A model generated the notes under the pieces. That model searched no databases and was not told the DNA's origin. It worked only from the letters and a program-made list of their open reading frames with translations. A stretch of DNA of 64,000 nt, from IMG/VR virus record IMGVR_UViG_3300025280_000022. One strand, written 5' to 3'. The DNA comes from a virus. Of this stretch, positions 21,717 to 63,583 are shown one piece after another (the stretch's first letter is position 1; each line of letters opens with the position of its first letter). The translations under genes and the position numbers were made by a program.

Positions 21717-22129
<413 letters not shown>

Positions 22130-35404: not shown

Positions 35405-35479
35405 AGCAGAGTGGAGCAGAGGCAGCTCGTCAGGCTCATAACCTGAAGGTCGCGGGTTCGATTCCCGCCTCTGCAACCA
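35405..35479 (+). tRNA. tRNA-Met(CAT), probably initiator
   Basis: Cloverleaf, anticodon arm TCAGG-CTCATAA-CCTGA, GGTTCGATTCC T-loop, 1:72 mismatch, CCA end. Confidence 0.92.
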
Positions 35480-52968: not shown

Positions 52969-55106
52969 ATTCTTTAATCTAAATTAATAAATATATAATG
53001 ACACTCGCAACAGTAGAAACTCAAGCACCAGCAACAACGCTAGTCAATTCAATCAACAAAGCAAATGAAGCGCAAGTGGATGCTTCTTGGGCGATTCTTA
53101 AATACAAAGAAATTGGCATTTACCGAAAGGTCGCTTGCCTCTCACAACTTCTTGATGTTGATTTTAATGTTGTACTGGATGAGCTTCCGCAAGATGAAGA
53201 TGGCAGGATTTTGGATTACAAGACAAGGCATATCATACATGATGCTCTTATCGAAGTCTCATAATTAAATATAAATTAAATAAAGAGCTTACAATCTATT
53301 CTTCCATCAGCATATAATGGAAAATAAAAAAATCCCCATTCGTTATTTGGTTTACAATAGCAAAGGAGCATGGCAAGCATCCTATTCAACACAACTTGGA
53401 GCCAAGACAGCTTACAGATATGCAAAGATGTGTGTGATGCAAATGGGCGGTGAAATATTCGCAACCTTTCCCCATGATCCGCATACAGAAATCAGTATCT
53501 TCAAACACAAGAATAAAAAGCCTTTGAAGAAATAAATCCTTGACTTTGATAATTATTTACCATATACTTGATAGATAATAAAGGAACAAGCAAAAAGCAA
53601 CTGACTTGCGTAACTTATATAATAAAGGAAAAAACACTAACAAATTGCAGAGAAATAGAATATCGCAAAATACTTTAGGGTAGTGCGAAATCTCTAATTA
53701 TCGCAAATAACTATATAATTAATATTATGAAATTGCAAATTGATAACTATCGTATTAGTAAATTGGATGATTTAAATGTTGTTATTGAACAGTATATTAA
53801 ACTTAATCCTCGTAATCCTTTTGGCAGACATGGCAGTAAAGGAAAAGCGAAACCAACTACAAATAAATTTAAATGGGTTAGGCTTGGTTACTATGCAACA
53901 TTGGCAGAAGCACTAAATAAATTAGTAAATCATAAACTCCTGTCTGTTGATGGCGAGCAAACTGCACAAGATTTGTTGTCAAGTTTGGCGCAACTCAAAG
54001 AAGAAATATTGGAAAAAGTTAGTGAAAAAAGTGGCTGGTAGACCGCCGAAACTTTATCGAATTTTTCATTAAATTAGCCCCATTTTAAACAATTTAGGCG
54101 AAATAACAATATAAAATGAGTATTTTGAAGAAATTTGGATTTGCCATTATTTGGTGTATATTTGGTTGCGGATGCGTTTTTAACCGCCCTCAACAAATAG
54201 ATTTAAATAATAAGCCTCAATATTATGCCAGCTTACATTACGAAGCGCAAATAAATAAAATTTACCAAGAGAAAAATGGTAATTGGAGAGTCGCAAAACA
54301 AACTAATATAAATGCAAATAAATATTGGAAAGCCTATCTTGATGCTCGTCATAATAGTGAGCGCACTCACCTCTTGCACAACAACAAATAACAGGCAGGG
54401 AAATCACAGAGGCGGTCAAGTCACCCACTTTTCGCAGAAGTCCGAAATAACTAATACAAGAGAACTAGAAATAAGAAAACCAACTTTACAAAAACTAAAA
54501 GTGATACAGCCGAAAATAGTTAAAGCGAAAACTACAAATAAAGAAGAAGCAAATACTTCTGAAGTAAAGCGAAATAAAGATAACTTAAACAAAGTCGCCG
54601 AATTAATTGAAGAAGAAAAACCATATGATAGGATGAACATGATTATGTTTTGGTTAGCCCTATTAAGCTCCAGCGTTTTGATCTGGTGTTCCGTATGGTT
54701 CGTTGGGCGCAGTCTCCTTAAATGAAATGGTCACCAGAACACGATAGATACGTAGTAAAGAAAAATAAGAGCATGAACGACCAGAGAAACCTCTTACAAA
54801 AAGAAGATAGACTTTTACTCTGGATAACAATAGCAATGAGTATATTTTATGTTGGACTTGGACTGGTTTATTGGCTATGGTCGAAATAATACATAGTTAT
54901 AAAATAAATAACTTCCATCGCTCTGGCATACAAATAAAAGAAACAACAAATAATACAATAAGCCTCACCTTAATTTCAAGCAATAAACTTGGAAATAAAC
55001 TTCAATCAATCAGCTTCACACCAAGCGAGTTGAAAGAAATAAATTGTGCAATAACAAAAATGCAAAAAGCTCTTGACTCACAAGATAGTTCTGGTAACAT
55101 TGAAGA

Positions 55107-55547
55107 ATGAAAAATAAGAAAAGCAATATTCTCACCTACTTAATTGTATTATTTTTTTTGGTAGGTTGTGCCGACGATAAACTAGAGAAGACCAACGCCA
55201 AGTTAGCGGAGGATCTTGAGAACAAGGATAGGGAGCTACAACAGAAAGAGCTTCAGCTTCAAGCGCAGACTACCGAAATACATCGACTAAACGTCCCTCC
55301 GCCCGATCTTCTACGCAAGATGGGAGGGCTTCCAGAAGCCTCCAATGCCAAATATGAAATAAGGATAAAGAATGATGCACAAGATGAGCGTCTTGCTGTT
55401 ACATCTGATCTGGAGTGGGCAAAGAAATATGTCGAACGCTACATGGAATATCATGGCGACCTTGTAGTATATGAATTAAAGTCAGGAAAAGCTTTATACT
55501 ATTGGAACAAAACAAATAAAAGCGAAATAACTCTTGACAAACAATAA
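55107..55547 (+). CDS. Lipoprotein (paralog family)
   Basis: FLVGC lipobox; KYEIR...VYELKSGKALYYW. Confidence 0.6.
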   Translation: MKNKKSNILTYLIVLFFLVGCADDKLEKTNAKLAEDLENKDRELQQKELQLQAQTTEIHRLNVPPPDLLRKMGGLPEASNAKYEIRIKNDAQDERLAVTSDLEWAKKYVERYMEYHGDLVVYELKSGKALYYWNKTNKSEITLDKQ

Positions 55548-55562
55548 AATTTATAGTATAAT
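55534..55562 (+). promoter_or_regulatory. Perfect sigma70 promoter driving non-coding RNAs
   Basis: TTGACA-N17-TATAAT. Confidence 0.85.
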
Positions 55563-55583
55563 ATACTTATAATAATTGAGAAA

Positions 55584-55654
55584 GGTTAATTAGCTGGAGT
55601 TCAACATCCCAATCCTTTAAGTAGGATTTCAGATTGCTAGTCCAGTAAATAACC
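55584..55654 (+). ncRNA. Orphan TIGR-like guide unit (spacers acatcccaa / gattgctag)
   Basis: ggttaatta-g-ctgga GTTCA N9 tcct-ttaagt-agga TTTCA N9 tccag-taaataacc. Confidence 0.75.
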
Positions 55655-55714
55655 GAAGTTCTTTTGACAGATTTTTAATTTTCACTTTTGCTTGGCGGCG
55701 GCCGAGTAAAAAAA

Positions 55715-55878
55715 GAGGGTGACAGAATAACGGTTTGATACTCGTCGTAATGTGCGCTACCTATCCCCCAGAGGGCAATCGCTTGAGGGATAAGTGTTAG
55801 GGGCGGCTCGAAGTAGGTAACTAGACATTAGTTTATCCCGAAAAGTTGGAGGTAATAATGAAGACCTTCCCCTCGCCA
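55715..55878 (+). ncRNA. Unidentified structured RNA with a tRNA-like 3' end
   Basis: No ORF; GAGGG/CCCTC closing stem followed by GCCA; internal helices TAATGT/ACATTA, TACCT/AGGTA, TATCCC/GGGATA, GGAGGT/ACCTTC. Confidence 0.55.
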
Positions 55879-55886
55879 ATTTTCTT

Positions 55887-55916
55887 AACCGCTTCAGCAA
55901 TCGCTGGGGCGGTTTT
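55887..55916 (+). terminator. Intrinsic terminator
   Basis: AACCGCTTCAGC-aatc-GCTGGGGCGGTTTT. Confidence 0.75.
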
Positions 55917-56303
55917 ATAATTTATAACAATGAATGAAGTAATAATATATGTAGTGTTGGTTTGCCTGTATGCTTATTATCTTACGACTAAATAAGATGC
56001 TAGGTTGAAATAATCTATGCCAAATAATAGTATATAGAGTGAAAAAATGGAAAGCTACCTTATGGGAAACCCCTCGTTCTTGCGGGTCTCCCATACCCAA
56101 GGGAATCAAGGGTCTCAATCAGTTTCCAGTTGATACAGTCTTATTGACTAAAAAATGTTATTCAACTGCGGAAGATATTTTCTTCACGGAACGACATTGG
56201 GGAACAAGAGAGAGGGAGCATCTTCATATTGAGATAGAGGAATTGCCTCGTATTGTTGAAACTGGGGCTTGACATTCTCCACAGACCTGTCATAATGATA
56301 GGT

Positions 56304-56813
56304 ATGAAATTGATTACGGCTCAAAGATTATGCGTTCGCCTGATGGAGAAATTTGATATTCTCGGACAAGGCGAGGAAAAATGGAAATGGGGCGGCTTTA
56401 ACAATAAGCGAGCAAATTGCGGTGAATGTTATACTGCCCTAGGTCATCGTAAGATTATGCTTTCCAAGCATTACGTTGTGGCAAATCCCGAAAAAAACGT
56501 AAGGAATACAATCCTACATGAGATTGCTCACGCACTAGATACCGAAGAACGAGGCGACTCATGGCACGATGCAAATTGGCGTAAATGGTGCAGGTTCGTT
56601 GGTTGTCGTGAAGATCGAATCAATGATGAAGCTATCGTCAAATATAAGTACAACGATGCGTGTTGTGGTTCAGAGTTTGGGCGGCATCGCATAAGTAGCA
56701 ACCATGCTTACAGTTGCAGTAGTTGTGGCAGATCATTGTTTGTTAAGCGTGTAAAGAAGAACACCGCACACAAATATAAGCTCAAGCTAGAAGATTTAAT
56801 ATCAGTAAGATGA
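56304..56813 (+). CDS. SprT-like zinc metalloprotease
   Basis: TILHEIAHA, H...W, C-terminal CxxC. Confidence 0.85.
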   Translation: MKLITAQRLCVRLMEKFDILGQGEEKWKWGGFNNKRANCGECYTALGHRKIMLSKHYVVANPEKNVRNTILHEIAHALDTEERGDSWHDANWRKWCRFVGCREDRINDEAIVKYKYNDACCGSEFGRHRISSNHAYSCSSCGRSLFVKRVKKNTAHKYKLKLEDLISVR

Positions 56814-57418
56814 GAACCCCAGACAATATTCACTTACGATCCTGCAAAGAGCAAATCCAAAAAGAAATACAAGAACTTTCAGCATTAAAGCTTGCACCAT
56901 CAATAATTAAAGACCTTTGTCAAATAGTAGAAAATAACTTCAAGGACTTGGAATGAAAAATCAAATCAAATATAGTGAAATAAGAGATTGGGTAGTTAAT
57001 TATCTTGAACATTGTAGCAAAGAAGATATTGTTAGATTATATGCGCAGGTGGAGTTAGGGAAGCGGTGGCGCTCCGAGCTGACTTATCTTGATATAGAAT
57101 GGGATGAATAATATGAGAAAACAAATCAAATATAGTCAAATATATGCTGATGTACTAGAAACCCTTGGAGGCGACCTTGCTTCTAGTTTTTTCTATGTTC
57201 CCAAAAAAGTTGTTGTGAGGATGTGGGTAAAATTGCCTAACCCCATGTGGGTAGGGAGGACGGACGATCTGGAAATTATCTATGATATGTGAAAAGTTAA
57301 TCGCATAGAAAATTTTGCCCCCCCGCCCGCCGCCAGCCCGCTTATAGAGCCAAATGGGGAGATAACTTTATTCATTTTTGGACTTGACTTAATCAAAAAA
57401 AATGTCATAATTAAAGGC

Positions 57419-57865
57419 ATGAAAGATAGGGAAATAGATTGGGATCGCAGAGTATACGTTTATCGCAACCTGCATAAAAACTGCTGGTCTGTGCGACAGA
57501 ACGGCCTGATTGTTCAACATACTAAAGAAGTTTCGTTGAAAGACGTTCGTTTCTTAGTGGGTCAAACTGGACGCAAGAAAGTTTTAAAAGAAAAGCGTAA
57601 GAATGTTCATGCTGGCATTTCAGGTTACCTTATGGGGTTTCGTGAGTCACACAAAGATATTAATGTTCCGAGATCACCAGCGGCAGCATTTTTCCCTAAC
57701 TCGGCACAGGTTGTTTACAATCCCTACAAGTACAAGACTTTTGTACGCATCCCAGAATACTCGTGGTCGCTCGTAAAAACGCAAGATCTAACGCCTGTAA
57801 AAAAGGCATCTTTCGCCTCTTTAAGCATTGACAATGGCGTGTTTGCCTATATGATAGAAGAATGA
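57419..57865 (+). CDS. Conserved phage hypothetical protein
   Basis: VYVYRNLHK.CWSVR..KRKNVHA..YNPYK motif. Confidence 0.6.
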   Translation: MKDREIDWDRRVYVYRNLHKNCWSVRQNGLIVQHTKEVSLKDVRFLVGQTGRKKVLKEKRKNVHAGISGYLMGFRESHKDINVPRSPAAAFFPNSAQVVYNPYKYKTFVRIPEYSWSLVKTQDLTPVKKASFASLSIDNGVFAYMIEE

Positions 57866-59847
57866 AAATGTTAAAAGATTATACCGTTGTAAATGATGCG
57901 TCCCTGATCACGGACACCTTCTTGCAGGGTTACGTTATCAGCAGTTACCAGAACTTGGTAGACCTCTTTGGCGAACCCACCGTACAGTTCGATCCTTATA
58001 AAACCAGAGCCAACTGGGTGGTGCAGTTTGAAGATGGCGTGGTGGCAACCGTTTATGATTACAAGGTACACGGCAAGCCTATTGAGGAGGTTACCGAATG
58101 GAACGTGGGAGGAAAGTCCCATGTCGGTCACGATAGAATGATGGAACTCGTATATGGAGAAGTTTTCGATGACTCTGGTTTGTAATCCCCAGCTACAAGA
58201 ACACCTCGACCATGAGTTTGGGGCGCAGTACGATGATGTGCGTGAACGCTACGCAAACGAGATTCAAGACATGAGAGATTACGAAGAATCCGAGCGAGAG
58301 TATTACGAGTATATGCAAAAAGTATATGAGGCAGGTTTCGGTGATGACGACCAAGCATACGAAAATTCATGGAAAAGAACTGAAGCATACTTTAACGAAC
58401 GTAACCTTAACTAACCAAAAAATGGACTACGATTACCTACAACTGCACCAAGACGACTACGGCTTCAACGTCAAGGCTTACAAAGCCGATGGTTATCCTT
58501 CATATTCCGTATGCGCTGGGATGACAAAGATTTCCTTTTTGGATTCTTTCAATTCCGAAGCCGAAGCGATTGAAGCGTACCCTGACCTCGTTGGTAGTGA
58601 TGGCGAAGTAAGTTATGGTTCTGCTTTCCTAGATGCCGACCTCAAGGACGTTTCCCACATTCCAGACACACCTGACCTATATATATAATGAAATTAGAAA
58701 AAACACACATGAAAACCTTGGCAGACTTGCGAGAGCAAATCCAAGAGGACATACTAACCTATATTGAATCAATACGAGTTACACAGTCGTGGAAAACTAT
58801 GGGCTTTCGGTACAAATCAGAGCTTTGTCAACTCGTAGGAGAAAGATTCAACCAATACACTAATGAATTACGATAGTTGCGAACATGAATACATGGAACT
58901 GAAGTCTCAATTCCATCAAGAAAGAATGCTTGAGCCGACAGAACCTCACGACAAAGGTTATCTTTTAGTAGACGACAATCAAGTGCAAGAGGCTATTGGT
59001 TTTCGTTCTATTGATGGGGCAGTCGAATACGCCTCGTCCCTTGAACATGACCACTATACAATCTATCAACTCAAAAAAGTATTATGATGACATCTCAATC
59101 AACTTTGGCCGTAAAGGGTTATATTATCGAGGAGGGCTTCCATCGTGAAAAGTGGCACCCTAAACAGCAGGCTTGCTGTGGCAACGGCAGGGCAACCCAT
59201 TATTATGACATTACCTACAAGGTGGATTATCGCATAACAAAATTCATCCGATTCGATAGGCTAGAACATAGGGAACAGTTTATTGAGTTACTGCACGAAG
59301 CAGGTTACAGATACGATGAGCTGTATGACAATCAACCCATCCCACCTCCACCAGGAGGAACAGTACGACCATGAAATACAGTGAACTATACTTTGAGAAA
59401 CACAATGACGATGAGATGAGTGCTTTTGCCCAACTCCTAGCTTACTTTCAGGCTTACTCAGTGAAGTTTGTCGTTGAGGATAGCCATACTTGTATTAAGC
59501 TCATGGTTCAGTGCACTGGGTGAAGTGAGTGATAGAGCGGGCTGGCGGCTGGCCGCCCCGCCCGCGCCGTGCCAATCCGCATGGATAGTGACTTTATTAG
59601 ACCGCCTTATTGAACCCATAGCTGAAAAAGTTTTTTTGTTTTTTGTGCGATTGCCCTTGACTTAATCGTAAAAGATGTCATACTTAAAGGTATGATAATT
59701 AAGGTAAGAAAGACAGGAATCTTTAGTAAAGCTCGCCCCTTCAAGCGTGTGAACAAAGTTCTCCCTCGCAAGCAAAAGCACAAGAAAAGGGTTGACATTT
59801 CCTAAAAAATCTATTTAATTAAAGGTAACAATTAAGCTAAAAAAACT

Positions 59848-61622: not shown

Positions 61623-61882
61623 CATGATTGCAGAACCAGTAATGGAACCTTCCCTCTACGAACTCAAGTTGGCGTCCAAGACCTATGACCCAACCTATGA
61701 TGTGGAGTGGAACGAAGATGTGGACGCATGGACAACTCGTTTCGTTGACCACTACAACAAGGATGACACCATCGACTATATGTTTAATTCTAAAGAAAAA
61801 GCCGAGGAATTGCTTCTTCAGTTAATTTCATAAAAAACAAAAAAAGGCTTGACTTTAAGTCCAGACCTGTCATACTTTATAT

Positions 61883-63070
61883 ATGATAAAACTTGAAACA
61901 CTATACAAGGTAGATTCCGTGGGGAAGCTACGAGAATGGACAATGGTAATTGACAGCAATTCTTACCATGCCGTAAAAGGACTTGTGGACGGCAAGAAAA
62001 CCACAGACAAACCAAGAGTTGCCATTGGCAAAAACATTGGTCGCACAAATGCAACAACCAATGAAGAACAAGCGGGACTTGAGGCACAATCTCGTTGGGA
62101 AAAGAAATTGAAAGCAGGTTACGCCCAGACTCTCAAAGGAGCAGAGTCGAAAAAATTCTACGAACCGATGCTCGCCCAAAAGTTTGAGGACAGAGAAGCA
62201 ACATTGGAATATCCAGTTTATTCGCAACCAAAACTTGATGGGATTAGGTGCATCGTTCAGAAGAAGAATGGTAAGATTGTCTCACACACAAGAACTGGTC
62301 GCGAGATTGAAACAATTCCCCATATCCTTGAGGAACTGAAGTTTTTCTTTGACCTGTATCCAAACGCTGTTCTTGATGGCGAACTATACAATCACGCCCT
62401 AAAGAGCGATTTCAACAAGATTGTTTCCCTTGTGAGAAAGCAAGTGCCTGTTCGTTCTGAAAAGCAAACAGATAAGGCTTTTGCCAAAAAGGTGCAAGCC
62501 TTTAAGGAACGCATGGTAGAAGCAAAGGCAATGATTCAGTACTGGGTTTATGATTGTCCACGCATAGGGGAACTAGATGAATCAAACACATTTGCCGAAA
62601 GGTTTGAAAAGGTGTCGAACCAATTTGAATTGGGCAATCCTTTTCCAGACGGAATTGTGCTTGTGCCTACCGAAAACATTTCGGACAAGGAAACTCTTGA
62701 CGAATTTTATGCAGAGTGGCTCAAGAAAGGGTTTGAAGGTCAGATGGTTCGCAAGGATGCCTCATATGAAAACAAGCGGAGTGCTACCCTTTTGAAGCGT
62801 AAAGAGTTTACGGATGCGGAGTATAAGGTGCTTGATATTGAAGAAGGCGATGGCAATCGTACTGGAACTGTAAAGCATTTGGTATGCTATTGCCCCACAA
62901 CGGACAGAACCTTCAATTCCAACGTCAAGGGCAACTTTGAATATCTCAAGGAGATTCTGGACAATCGAGAATATTATATCGGTCAACTCGCAACCATAAA
63001 GTTTTTTGAGTTGACTCCTGATGGGATTCCTCGCTTTCCGTTTGCCATAGCATTTAGGGATTATGAATAA
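61883..63070 (+). CDS. ATP-dependent DNA ligase (copy 2)
   Basis: QPKLDGIR, LDGELY, FEGQMVR, LLKRKEF, PRFP; collinear with 44847. Confidence 0.92.
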   Translation: MIKLETLYKVDSVGKLREWTMVIDSNSYHAVKGLVDGKKTTDKPRVAIGKNIGRTNATTNEEQAGLEAQSRWEKKLKAGYAQTLKGAESKKFYEPMLAQKFEDREATLEYPVYSQPKLDGIRCIVQKKNGKIVSHTRTGREIETIPHILEELKFFFDLYPNAVLDGELYNHALKSDFNKIVSLVRKQVPVRSEKQTDKAFAKKVQAFKERMVEAKAMIQYWVYDCPRIGELDESNTFAERFEKVSNQFELGNPFPDGIVLVPTENISDKETLDEFYAEWLKKGFEGQMVRKDASYENKRSATLLKRKEFTDAEYKVLDIEEGDGNRTGTVKHLVCYCPTTDRTFNSNVKGNFEYLKEILDNREYYIGQLATIKFFELTPDGIPRFPFAIAFRDYE

Positions 63071-63496
63071 AACGAAGGACGAACTAACGCCAGAAGATCT
63101 TAAGGTCATACTTGATGTGCTTAACGTCTATGACCCTAATGATATCAAACACGTTTATTCGGCTATGGGTTCCCAGGAGTTTATAGCTGAAGTTAACGAC
63201 ACGTTTCAGAAAGTGTTATCCTTTGTAAAAAAAGGATTGACTCTTCGATCAAATCTGTCAAACTCAATACATGGAAATTCAACAACAGATTGCGATTGGC
63301 TCAAATGAAGTTGCCAACCTTATTGAACTGCACCAAGACCTATTAGAAGATAACGATAAGATTTGCCAAATCGTCCACATAGGTCGTTGCAGTCTAGAGT
63401 TTTTTATGGCATCTGGTAATGACACAAGAGCATTGTATGAGGTGCTTAATACCAGAATAAAACTTATGGAGTTTCTGGGCTTAATGTAATTTATTT

Positions 63497-63583
63497 GCCC
63501 GAGTGGTGGAATGGTAGACACTACGGACTTAAAATCCGTTGCCCCAACAAGGCGTGAGGGTTCGACTCCCTCCTTGGGCACCA
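63497..63583 (+). tRNA. tRNA-Leu(TAA)
   Basis: GCCCGAG..CTTGGGC-ACCA acceptor stem, anticodon arm ACGGA-CTTAAAA-TCCGT, long variable arm. Confidence 0.95.

Follow-up and report, generated by a model that had tools for sequence, protein, structure and literature searches.

A probable solitary stem-loop guide unit in the leader of a manA-like RNA of a phage

The hairpin studied here lies at 55584-55654 of the window, i.e. of the whole 64-kb stretch of phage DNA that was analysed (Table 1). It is probably a solitary tigRNA-type stem-loop guide unit of a phage TIGR-Tas-like system, which would have been inserted into a manA leader and be cotranscribed with manA. Membership in an RNA family, co-location with manA, the pattern of change between strains and the fold of the presumed partner protein are what the analysis shows.

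Table 1. Positions of the guide-manA locus and of other features discussed in the window
Feature	Position	Strand	Basis or remark
Sigma-70 consensus promoter, TTGACA-17-TATAAT	55534-55562	+	12/12; manA-locus alignment
Full guide hairpin	55584-55654	+	sequence and RNA fold
Core 52-nt tigRNA-type unit	55594-55645	+	covariance model, 32.5 bits, E 7e-5; identical in L076, variant in L077
Segment A, ACATC + CCAA	55604-55612	+	first 5 nt variable; C55605 to T in sister strain
Segment B, GATTG + CTAG	55632-55640	+	first 5 nt variable; G55632 to A and T55634 to C in sister strain
manA-like structured RNA	55691-55879	+	Rfam model at full length, 36 bits, E 7.5e-8
Intrinsic-terminator-like hairpin, 12 pairs then TTTTAT	55887-55914	+	ends the non-coding unit
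P0001, presumed partner, 341 aa	18682-19707	+	RuvC-type N-domain with DEDD, coiled coil, helical C-domain; IS110/TasR-like
Three-unit guide array	19708-19893	+	directly after the P0001 stop codon; R1 matches
Other orphan unit	52850-52901	+	just past the ORF ending at 52841; 48.4 bits
Promoter-like repeats	56263-56319, 57378-57434, 59651-59707, 48804-48863, 61826-61885, 63222-63273

The hairpin and its RNA family

The promoter consists of TTGACA (55534-55539) and TATAAT (55557-55562) with a spacer of 17 nt, and its full consensus score makes it the top promoter site within 52700-56400 in a consensus scan. The hairpin starts 21 nt past TATAAT and is 71 nt long. This layout had been described in an earlier note made from the letters alone, and both promoter and hairpin were found letter by letter as described there. 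The order of the hairpin elements is GGTTAATTA-G-CTGGA-GTTCA-ACATCCCAA-TCCT-TTAAGT-AGGA-TTTCA-GATTGCTAG-TCCAG-TAAATAACC. The outer stem of 9 bp contains one A.A mismatch and is followed by a bulged G and then by a 5-bp stem (CTGGA/TCCAG). Next comes an internal loop of 14x14 nt with GTTCA+ACATCCCAA on one side and TTTCA+GATTGCTAG on the other, each strand consisting of xUUCA plus 9 nt, and the tip is formed by a 4-bp stem (TCCT/AGGA) with the loop TTAAGT. Folded as RNA, the hairpin reaches -20.2 kcal/mol (z = -3.3), and one of 200 shuffled sequences was equally stable. Elsewhere in the window, near-identical promoter-like repeats of the type TTGAC-N-TGTCATAAT precede many small ORFs and are unlike the manA/guide promoter; paired boxes rich in GC are located at 59536, 60930 and 63600.

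To describe the family, units of the same shape were located near the genes in 59 IMG/VR loci carrying homologues of P0001. From these, 18 units of seven other phages, selected for full pairing, were used to build a covariance model (R1). No unit of the window was included, so that circularity was avoided. All nine base pairs vary on both sides in this training alignment, which is to be read with the selection for full pairing in mind. When R1 was run on the 64-kb window with filters off, exactly five sites were found, the sixth match reaching only 10.9 bits (E 5.7). The array units at 19708, 19765 and 19842 scored 50.7, 46.6 and 40.6 bits, respectively, and the orphan at 52850 scored 48.4 bits. 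The 55584 hairpin was matched over the full model length, with the lowest score of the five (32.5 bits). It shares the unit architecture 5-5-9-4-6-4-5-9-5, with two segments in one internal loop and a palindromic closing stem, and keeps all ten positions that are invariant in the 18 training units (UUCA twice, A8 twice) and near-invariant across 89 family units. Therefore, the 55584 hairpin is a real member of the family, and the weakest one in the window.

In 56 tas-type loci, R1 found 93 units, 92 of them on the strand of the gene. Nearly all lie within about 1.2 kb of tas, some overlapping its 3' end; one unit of L016 is ~2.3 kb away and on the opposite strand. The hairpin and the array units next to the RuvC-type gene belong to one family of guide-type units, as the earlier note had proposed. 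In two loci (L007:1149-1200 and L017:1388-1439), the tas reading frame extends into the first guide unit; an intragenic tigRNA case was described by Xu et al. 2026 (bioRxiv 10.64898/2026.09.09.750476). Within the window, the exact TAAATAACC has only two copies (19821-19829 and 55646-55654), each just 3' of a guide unit, and array unit 2 and the 55584 orphan also have GGAGTTCA and the TTAAGT loop in common. Tandem-repeat and direct-repeat scans of the window did not pick up the 19708-19893 array.

Regarding the variable letters, the loop-strand consensus of 89 distinct units, a set biased towards the R1 training units, is R-U-U-C-A, then five letters with essentially no information, then U-Y-A-U/A, with U at position 6 in 88-94% of the units and A8 in 176 of 178 strands (89/89 for spacer A, 87/89 for spacer B). 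In the case of the 55584 unit, UUCA, Y7 and A8 are kept in both strands. It departs from the consensus by C6 in both strands (found in 3-4 of the 89 units) and by G9 in strand B (0/89), and it is without the extra closing pair A1-B14. The spacers had been said not to end in TYAY, and indeed CCAA and CTAG deviate from this ending, but the invariant A8 and Y7 are retained. The conclusion drawn from it, namely that the whole 9 nt is variable, did not hold, since only positions 1-5 are free, both in the 89 units and in the strain comparisons.

The DNA of this phage is present in samples of 17 studies. A metagenome pattern search with fixed stems and open 9-mers detected two relatives, L076 and L077. 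The guide unit of L076 is identical to that of the window. L077 (TARA; the same strain was seen in run X16) shows 95.8% identity to the window over 3.3 kb, and its hairpin differs at three positions (55605, 55632 and 55634), all inside the two pentamers. At the average rate of L077, 0.37 changes are expected in the 10 variable nt compared to three observed (Poisson P about 0.006). The rest of the hairpin (61 bases) and the manA part of 189 nt show no change, with about 9 expected. The variable letters differ between strains and the scaffold is constant. In a third lineage, from run X14 (a 56.6-kb contig), 45 nt of the scaffold are retained with 6 mismatches, and the strand-B pentamer after them is a different one. 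The pattern is stronger in the array than in the orphan. In the comparison with L078 (92% identity), most pentamer letters differ and the boxes and UYAY tetranucleotides are unchanged; the stems are kept as well, one of them with a compensating change. L078 has four array units (L078:1486-1757) and the window has three at 19708-19893. Judging by these two arrays, this is very fast, localised guide turnover.

The manA-like RNA and the insertion of guide units into manA leaders

Downstream of the hairpin lies a manA-like RNA with a score of 36 bits, below the Rfam gathering score of 55.2 (RF01745). Because the model is matched over its full length and the promoter and leader are common to true manA loci, this RNA is most likely a divergent manA member. 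Its last hairpin contains GGAGG and an ATG. The terminator-like hairpin that follows is the sole such site between the guide hairpin and the next gene. Altogether, promoter, guide hairpin, manA-like RNA and terminator make up a predicted non-coding transcription unit of ~350 nt.

A leader alignment showed that manA loci have the promoter and the opening letters of the leader, AATTGAGAAA, in common, whether or not they carry a guide unit. The unit does stand behind a perfect sigma-70 promoter, as the earlier note had it. Since promoter and leader are conserved in phages without the guide hairpin, however, the promoter belongs to the manA unit, and a stand-alone guide gene with its own promoter could not be upheld; the only terminator-like site, placed after the manA-like RNA, likewise argues against it.

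An ORF of 20 codons (MKTFPSPIFLTASAIAGAVL, 55858-55920) starts at the ATG in the last manA hairpin, 5 nt past GGAGG, and ends inside the terminator. L076 has a hydrophobic version of 20 aa with a different tail, and in L077 the stop is lost (A55920T). It may be a gene regulated by manA, or noise. For the ORFs at 55107-55547 and 56253-56813, no relatives were found in IMG/VR, and a DNA search of GenBank phages returned only a 68-nt chance-like match.

To compare leaders, manA loci were collected with a core-pattern search of IMG/VR and picked by eye, giving about 15 true loci. Guide units precede manA in L097/L100 (53.5 bits; the contig of L100 is 179 kb long), in L119 and in L110 (= G006), and they are absent from the other sampled loci. 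G006 is a complete 194-kb phage with a Tas homologue of 39% identity, a unit located 13 nt upstream of manA, and a manA of 92.9 bits, which is above the Rfam threshold. The insertion point in L097 and L119 is after the conserved leader; in the window it is inside the leader hairpin, directly after AATTGAGAAAGG. Contigs of the runs X11 and X14 carry close relatives of the window's locus that have 42 different letters where the window has the 94 nt 55586-55679, a stretch covering most of the hairpin. The replacement resembles the unit-less leader, with the joint at 55585-55680 and a loose end at 55582. Because promoter and leader are shared and close relatives are without the unit, the guide unit is, as read from these alignments, an inserted cassette with presence/absence polymorphism in the manA leader. 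The occurrence of such predicted guide units in manA leaders of several lineages, at two insertion points, is new.

The letters AAATAACC are also present in the unit-less leader of relatives, and they may be the microhomology used in copying the unit into the leader. In L164 (G013), a different insert, ~75 nt long, is found upstream of manA at the same place in the leader; according to R1 it is not a guide unit. The manA leader seems to be an insertion hot spot.

The earlier note had named a missing association with the RuvC protein as a refutation; the records are few but point towards an association. The unit is present in both manA-bearing records with tas (this window and G006; 2/2) and absent from the complete tas-less manA phages G010 and G012 (0/2), for which the positive control of the tas search worked; this co-occurrence rests on very few complete genomes, fragments being uninformative. 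In four complete or near-complete tas-bearing relatives without manA, units were found only beside tas. Other orphans of tas-bearing phages are located at G006:61100-61151 (L081) and G008:59865-59915 (L088). Among the orphans of these two phages, one directly follows a phage tmRNA gene (131 bits) on its 3' side, and another lies ~6 kb upstream of tas. The window itself contains a tmRNA at 21717-22127 (111.5 bits; predicted tag peptide ADINWKGRYLHTRKIFFI), a tRNA-Met at 35405 and a tRNA-Leu at 63497.

Partner protein, proposed mechanism and alternative explanations

Homologues of P0001 fall into 75 clusters from marine and other metagenomes, several of them on contigs of 120-230 kb. No homologues were found in GenBank phages, no Pfam family was matched (including the Pfam IS110 domain), and the only sequence matches in the PDB were His-tag/TEV artefacts. 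The structure was more informative. The AlphaFold model has a pLDDT of 93, and its top Foldseek matches are the bridge-RNA recombinases IS621 and ISCro4 and the TIGR-TasR 9mty (probability 0.96-1.0; 0.99 for 9mty_B against full-length P0001). In VIA-align, residues 7-340 align with the IS110 proteins IS621/ISCro4 at Z 9.0-9.3, and the RuvC part aligns with TasR 9mty_A at Z 8.8 (rmsd 2.9 over 94 residues), compared to a Z of about 7 for RuvC and RuvX resolvases.

The DEDD set of IS621 has D-x-x-D spacing. Among the homologues of P0001, D14, E52 and D123 do not vary, and the conservation of D120 is at least 90%; with this DEDD set in D-x-x-D spacing, the predicted nuclease site appears to be intact. 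For S278, which is invariant, no correspondence to the catalytic serine of IS110 could be established. The C-terminal half is helical when folded alone and then yields no Foldseek matches at E <= 0.001. Its weak matches to ISCro4 (Z 4.1) and to the TasH-pre-tigRNA complex 21kl (Z 3.7) stand among unrelated helical proteins, and in a wide structural search (Z <= 5) ISCro4 and TasH were in the top ten without being outstanding, so that this half is at most a candidate for the Nop-type RNA-binding domain of TIGR-Tas proteins. Taken together, the R1 family and the fold and DEDD set of P0001 point to a stem-loop TIGR-Tas guide unit.

In the mechanism that we propose, the consensus promoter would drive an RNA of ~350 nt, with the guide as 5' module, then the manA-like RNA and the intrinsic terminator. 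A dimer of the TasR-like protein, whose gene is 36 kb upstream, would bind the unit, each protomer holding one xUUCA...UYA loop strand, and each strand of a DNA site ACATCCCAA+CTAGCAATC would be paired with one of the two loop strands. Since the DEDD tetrad is intact, P0001 would probably cut at the target site. As for its origin, the unit would have been inserted into the manA leader. What we infer in this scheme is the binding and processing of the RNA, the targeting of DNA and the timing. The guide may be expressed strongly and early, as the earlier note supposed.

Published work reports an 8-nt 3' overhang and a cut at the fifth spacer base, from which one target strand would read spacer A and then the reverse-complemented spacer B, ACATCCCAACTAGCAATC. 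In typical family units, the conserved TYAY-RTRA would then be central to the site, with one predicted cut on either side. A search for self-targets in the window with the joined 18-mers of all five units found none at up to 2 mismatches, and ACATCCCAACTAGCAATC is absent from IMG/VR. In 596 Gb of genome contigs, ACATCCCAACTAGCAATC had five matches compared to about 17 expected by chance on two strands. These five were rejected as targets, being fewer than chance and located in unrelated or merely orthologous genes coding for IASWDV. No depletion of TYAY-RTRA was detected in the window (17 observed, 19.6 +/- 4.0 expected), nor of CCAACTAG (1 observed, 1.4 expected).

Regarding the manA RNAs, these have been reported to self-assemble into decamers and 60-mer cages (bioRxiv 10.64898/2026.07.01.735769). 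It would be a long shot to suppose that the guide-manA fusion is functional and not a hitch-hike. If it were, the manA particle could display or concentrate many Tas-guide complexes, or, alternatively, guide release could be coupled to manA folding. Recurrent independent insertions into manA leaders of tas-bearing phages would then be a footprint of selection.

Other explanations of the hairpin were weighed as well. It could be a decaying or retired guide unit from the array, which now serves only the structure of the manA transcript as its 5' hairpin, for stability or processing, and is no longer loaded into Tas. Its rank as the lowest R1 score of the five units would be consistent with this, as would the unusual letters that it has at position 6 in the two strands and at position 9 in strand B, the target search without a credible match, and the manA-linked unit of L119, which has UUUA instead of UUCA. 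However, the invariant positions are all present, sister strains change the 5-nt parts and not the stems or boxes, and the third lineage retains the scaffold with a quite different strand-B pentamer, which makes retirement rather unlikely.

We consider it very unlikely that the hairpin is a leader hairpin of manA's own (an RNase site, an anti-terminator or an assembly module), guide-like by convergence and unrelated to the RuvC-type protein. Such a hairpin would be expected neither to be absent from most sampled manA loci, to sit at two different leader positions across lineages and to be exchanged for other letters in close relatives, nor to be detected by the same model R1 that detects the tas-adjacent arrays and to be missing from the complete tas-less manA phages. 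What speaks for it is that the 55584-type unit is always fused to manA within one transcription unit, and that other leader hairpins occupy that place in manA loci. Finally, the element could act as DNA and not as RNA, being an inverted-repeat operator or a recombination site downstream of the promoter. The inverted repeat is indeed 21 nt from the promoter, and the minus strand folds well too (z -4.9), but G-U pairs and strand-specific boxes (UUCA on the plus strand only) are found family-wide, 92 of 93 family matches are on the tas coding strand, and the stem sequences vary with pairing kept (in units selected for full pairing). A role at the DNA level is thus extremely improbable. The solitary guide unit of a TIGR-Tas-like system is the explanation that we prefer and with which the known systems are compared in the following. 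What speaks against it is the low R1 score with the departures from the consensus, the atypical boxes, the weak matches of the C-terminal half and the small number of complete genomes behind the co-occurrence with tas.

Comparison with known systems

In the case of the IS110 bridge-RNA recombinases (IS621, ISCro4; PDB 8wt6, 8wt9, 9t56), the likeness lies in the protein and in the guide principle: they are the best full-length structural matches of P0001, they share the DEDD set with D-x-x-D spacing, and their guides are on both strands of an internal loop. Their bridge RNA differs, having two loops and being present as one RNA per element, whereas the family units are one-loop units in arrays, and no transposon ends were seen. 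In the case of the manA motif (RF01745; Weinberg et al. 2010, PMC2864571), the whole model is matched, and promoter and leader are common to undoubted phage loci. Unlike the motif as described, the locus has a guide hairpin in the leader, and the downstream RNA stays at 36 bits compared to the 55.2 bits of the gathering score.

The closest likeness is to stem-loop TIGR-Tas, represented by PlTasA, PateTasR and CsTasR (Faure et al. 2025, PMC12045711; Xu et al. 2026, bioRxiv 10.64898/2026.09.09.750476), and the kind of system is therefore one already known, having been described in 2025-26. Shared with it are a small protein that begins with a RuvC domain and also has a helical part (RNA-binding in TIGR-Tas), tandem hairpin units beside or overlapping the gene, flexible positions of the units around tas, and the occurrence in phages. 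In both, the internal loop of a unit carries two 9-nt segments, the palindromic stems vary, and the spacers are in some cases separated by a hairpin. With respect to the tandem placement, the family and the array of the window fit, but the 55584 unit itself is 36 kb from tas.

Several features set the clade apart. TIGR-Tas boxes are CCA/CGA/CTA/CAA (or CUU) and UG/CG, whereas the clade has xUUCA and U-Y-A and no UG. As these motifs are outside the motif set of the published finder, it would not seed on the arrays. Only 5 nt per segment vary in the clade. Its DEDD set looks intact, in contrast to the two solved stem-loop TasRs, which are dead. Moreover, single units are located 33-36 kb from tas, within other transcription units. 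Single units far from tas are mentioned in neither Faure 2025 nor Xu 2026; the word 'orphan' occurs in neither text and 'standalone' does not occur in Faure 2025.

The published papers pose as questions the expression and diversification of TIGR-Tas guides and the nature of their targets outside the laboratory. The marine-phage clade bears on these with its atypical boxes, 5+5 hypervariable letters, an apparently intact nuclease site and units tens of kb from the effector. The manA-leader units and their unit-less relatives offer a concrete, testable case of guide-cassette gain, and promoter, guide and manA together a small construct with which the expression of stem-loop guides and their processing could be studied.
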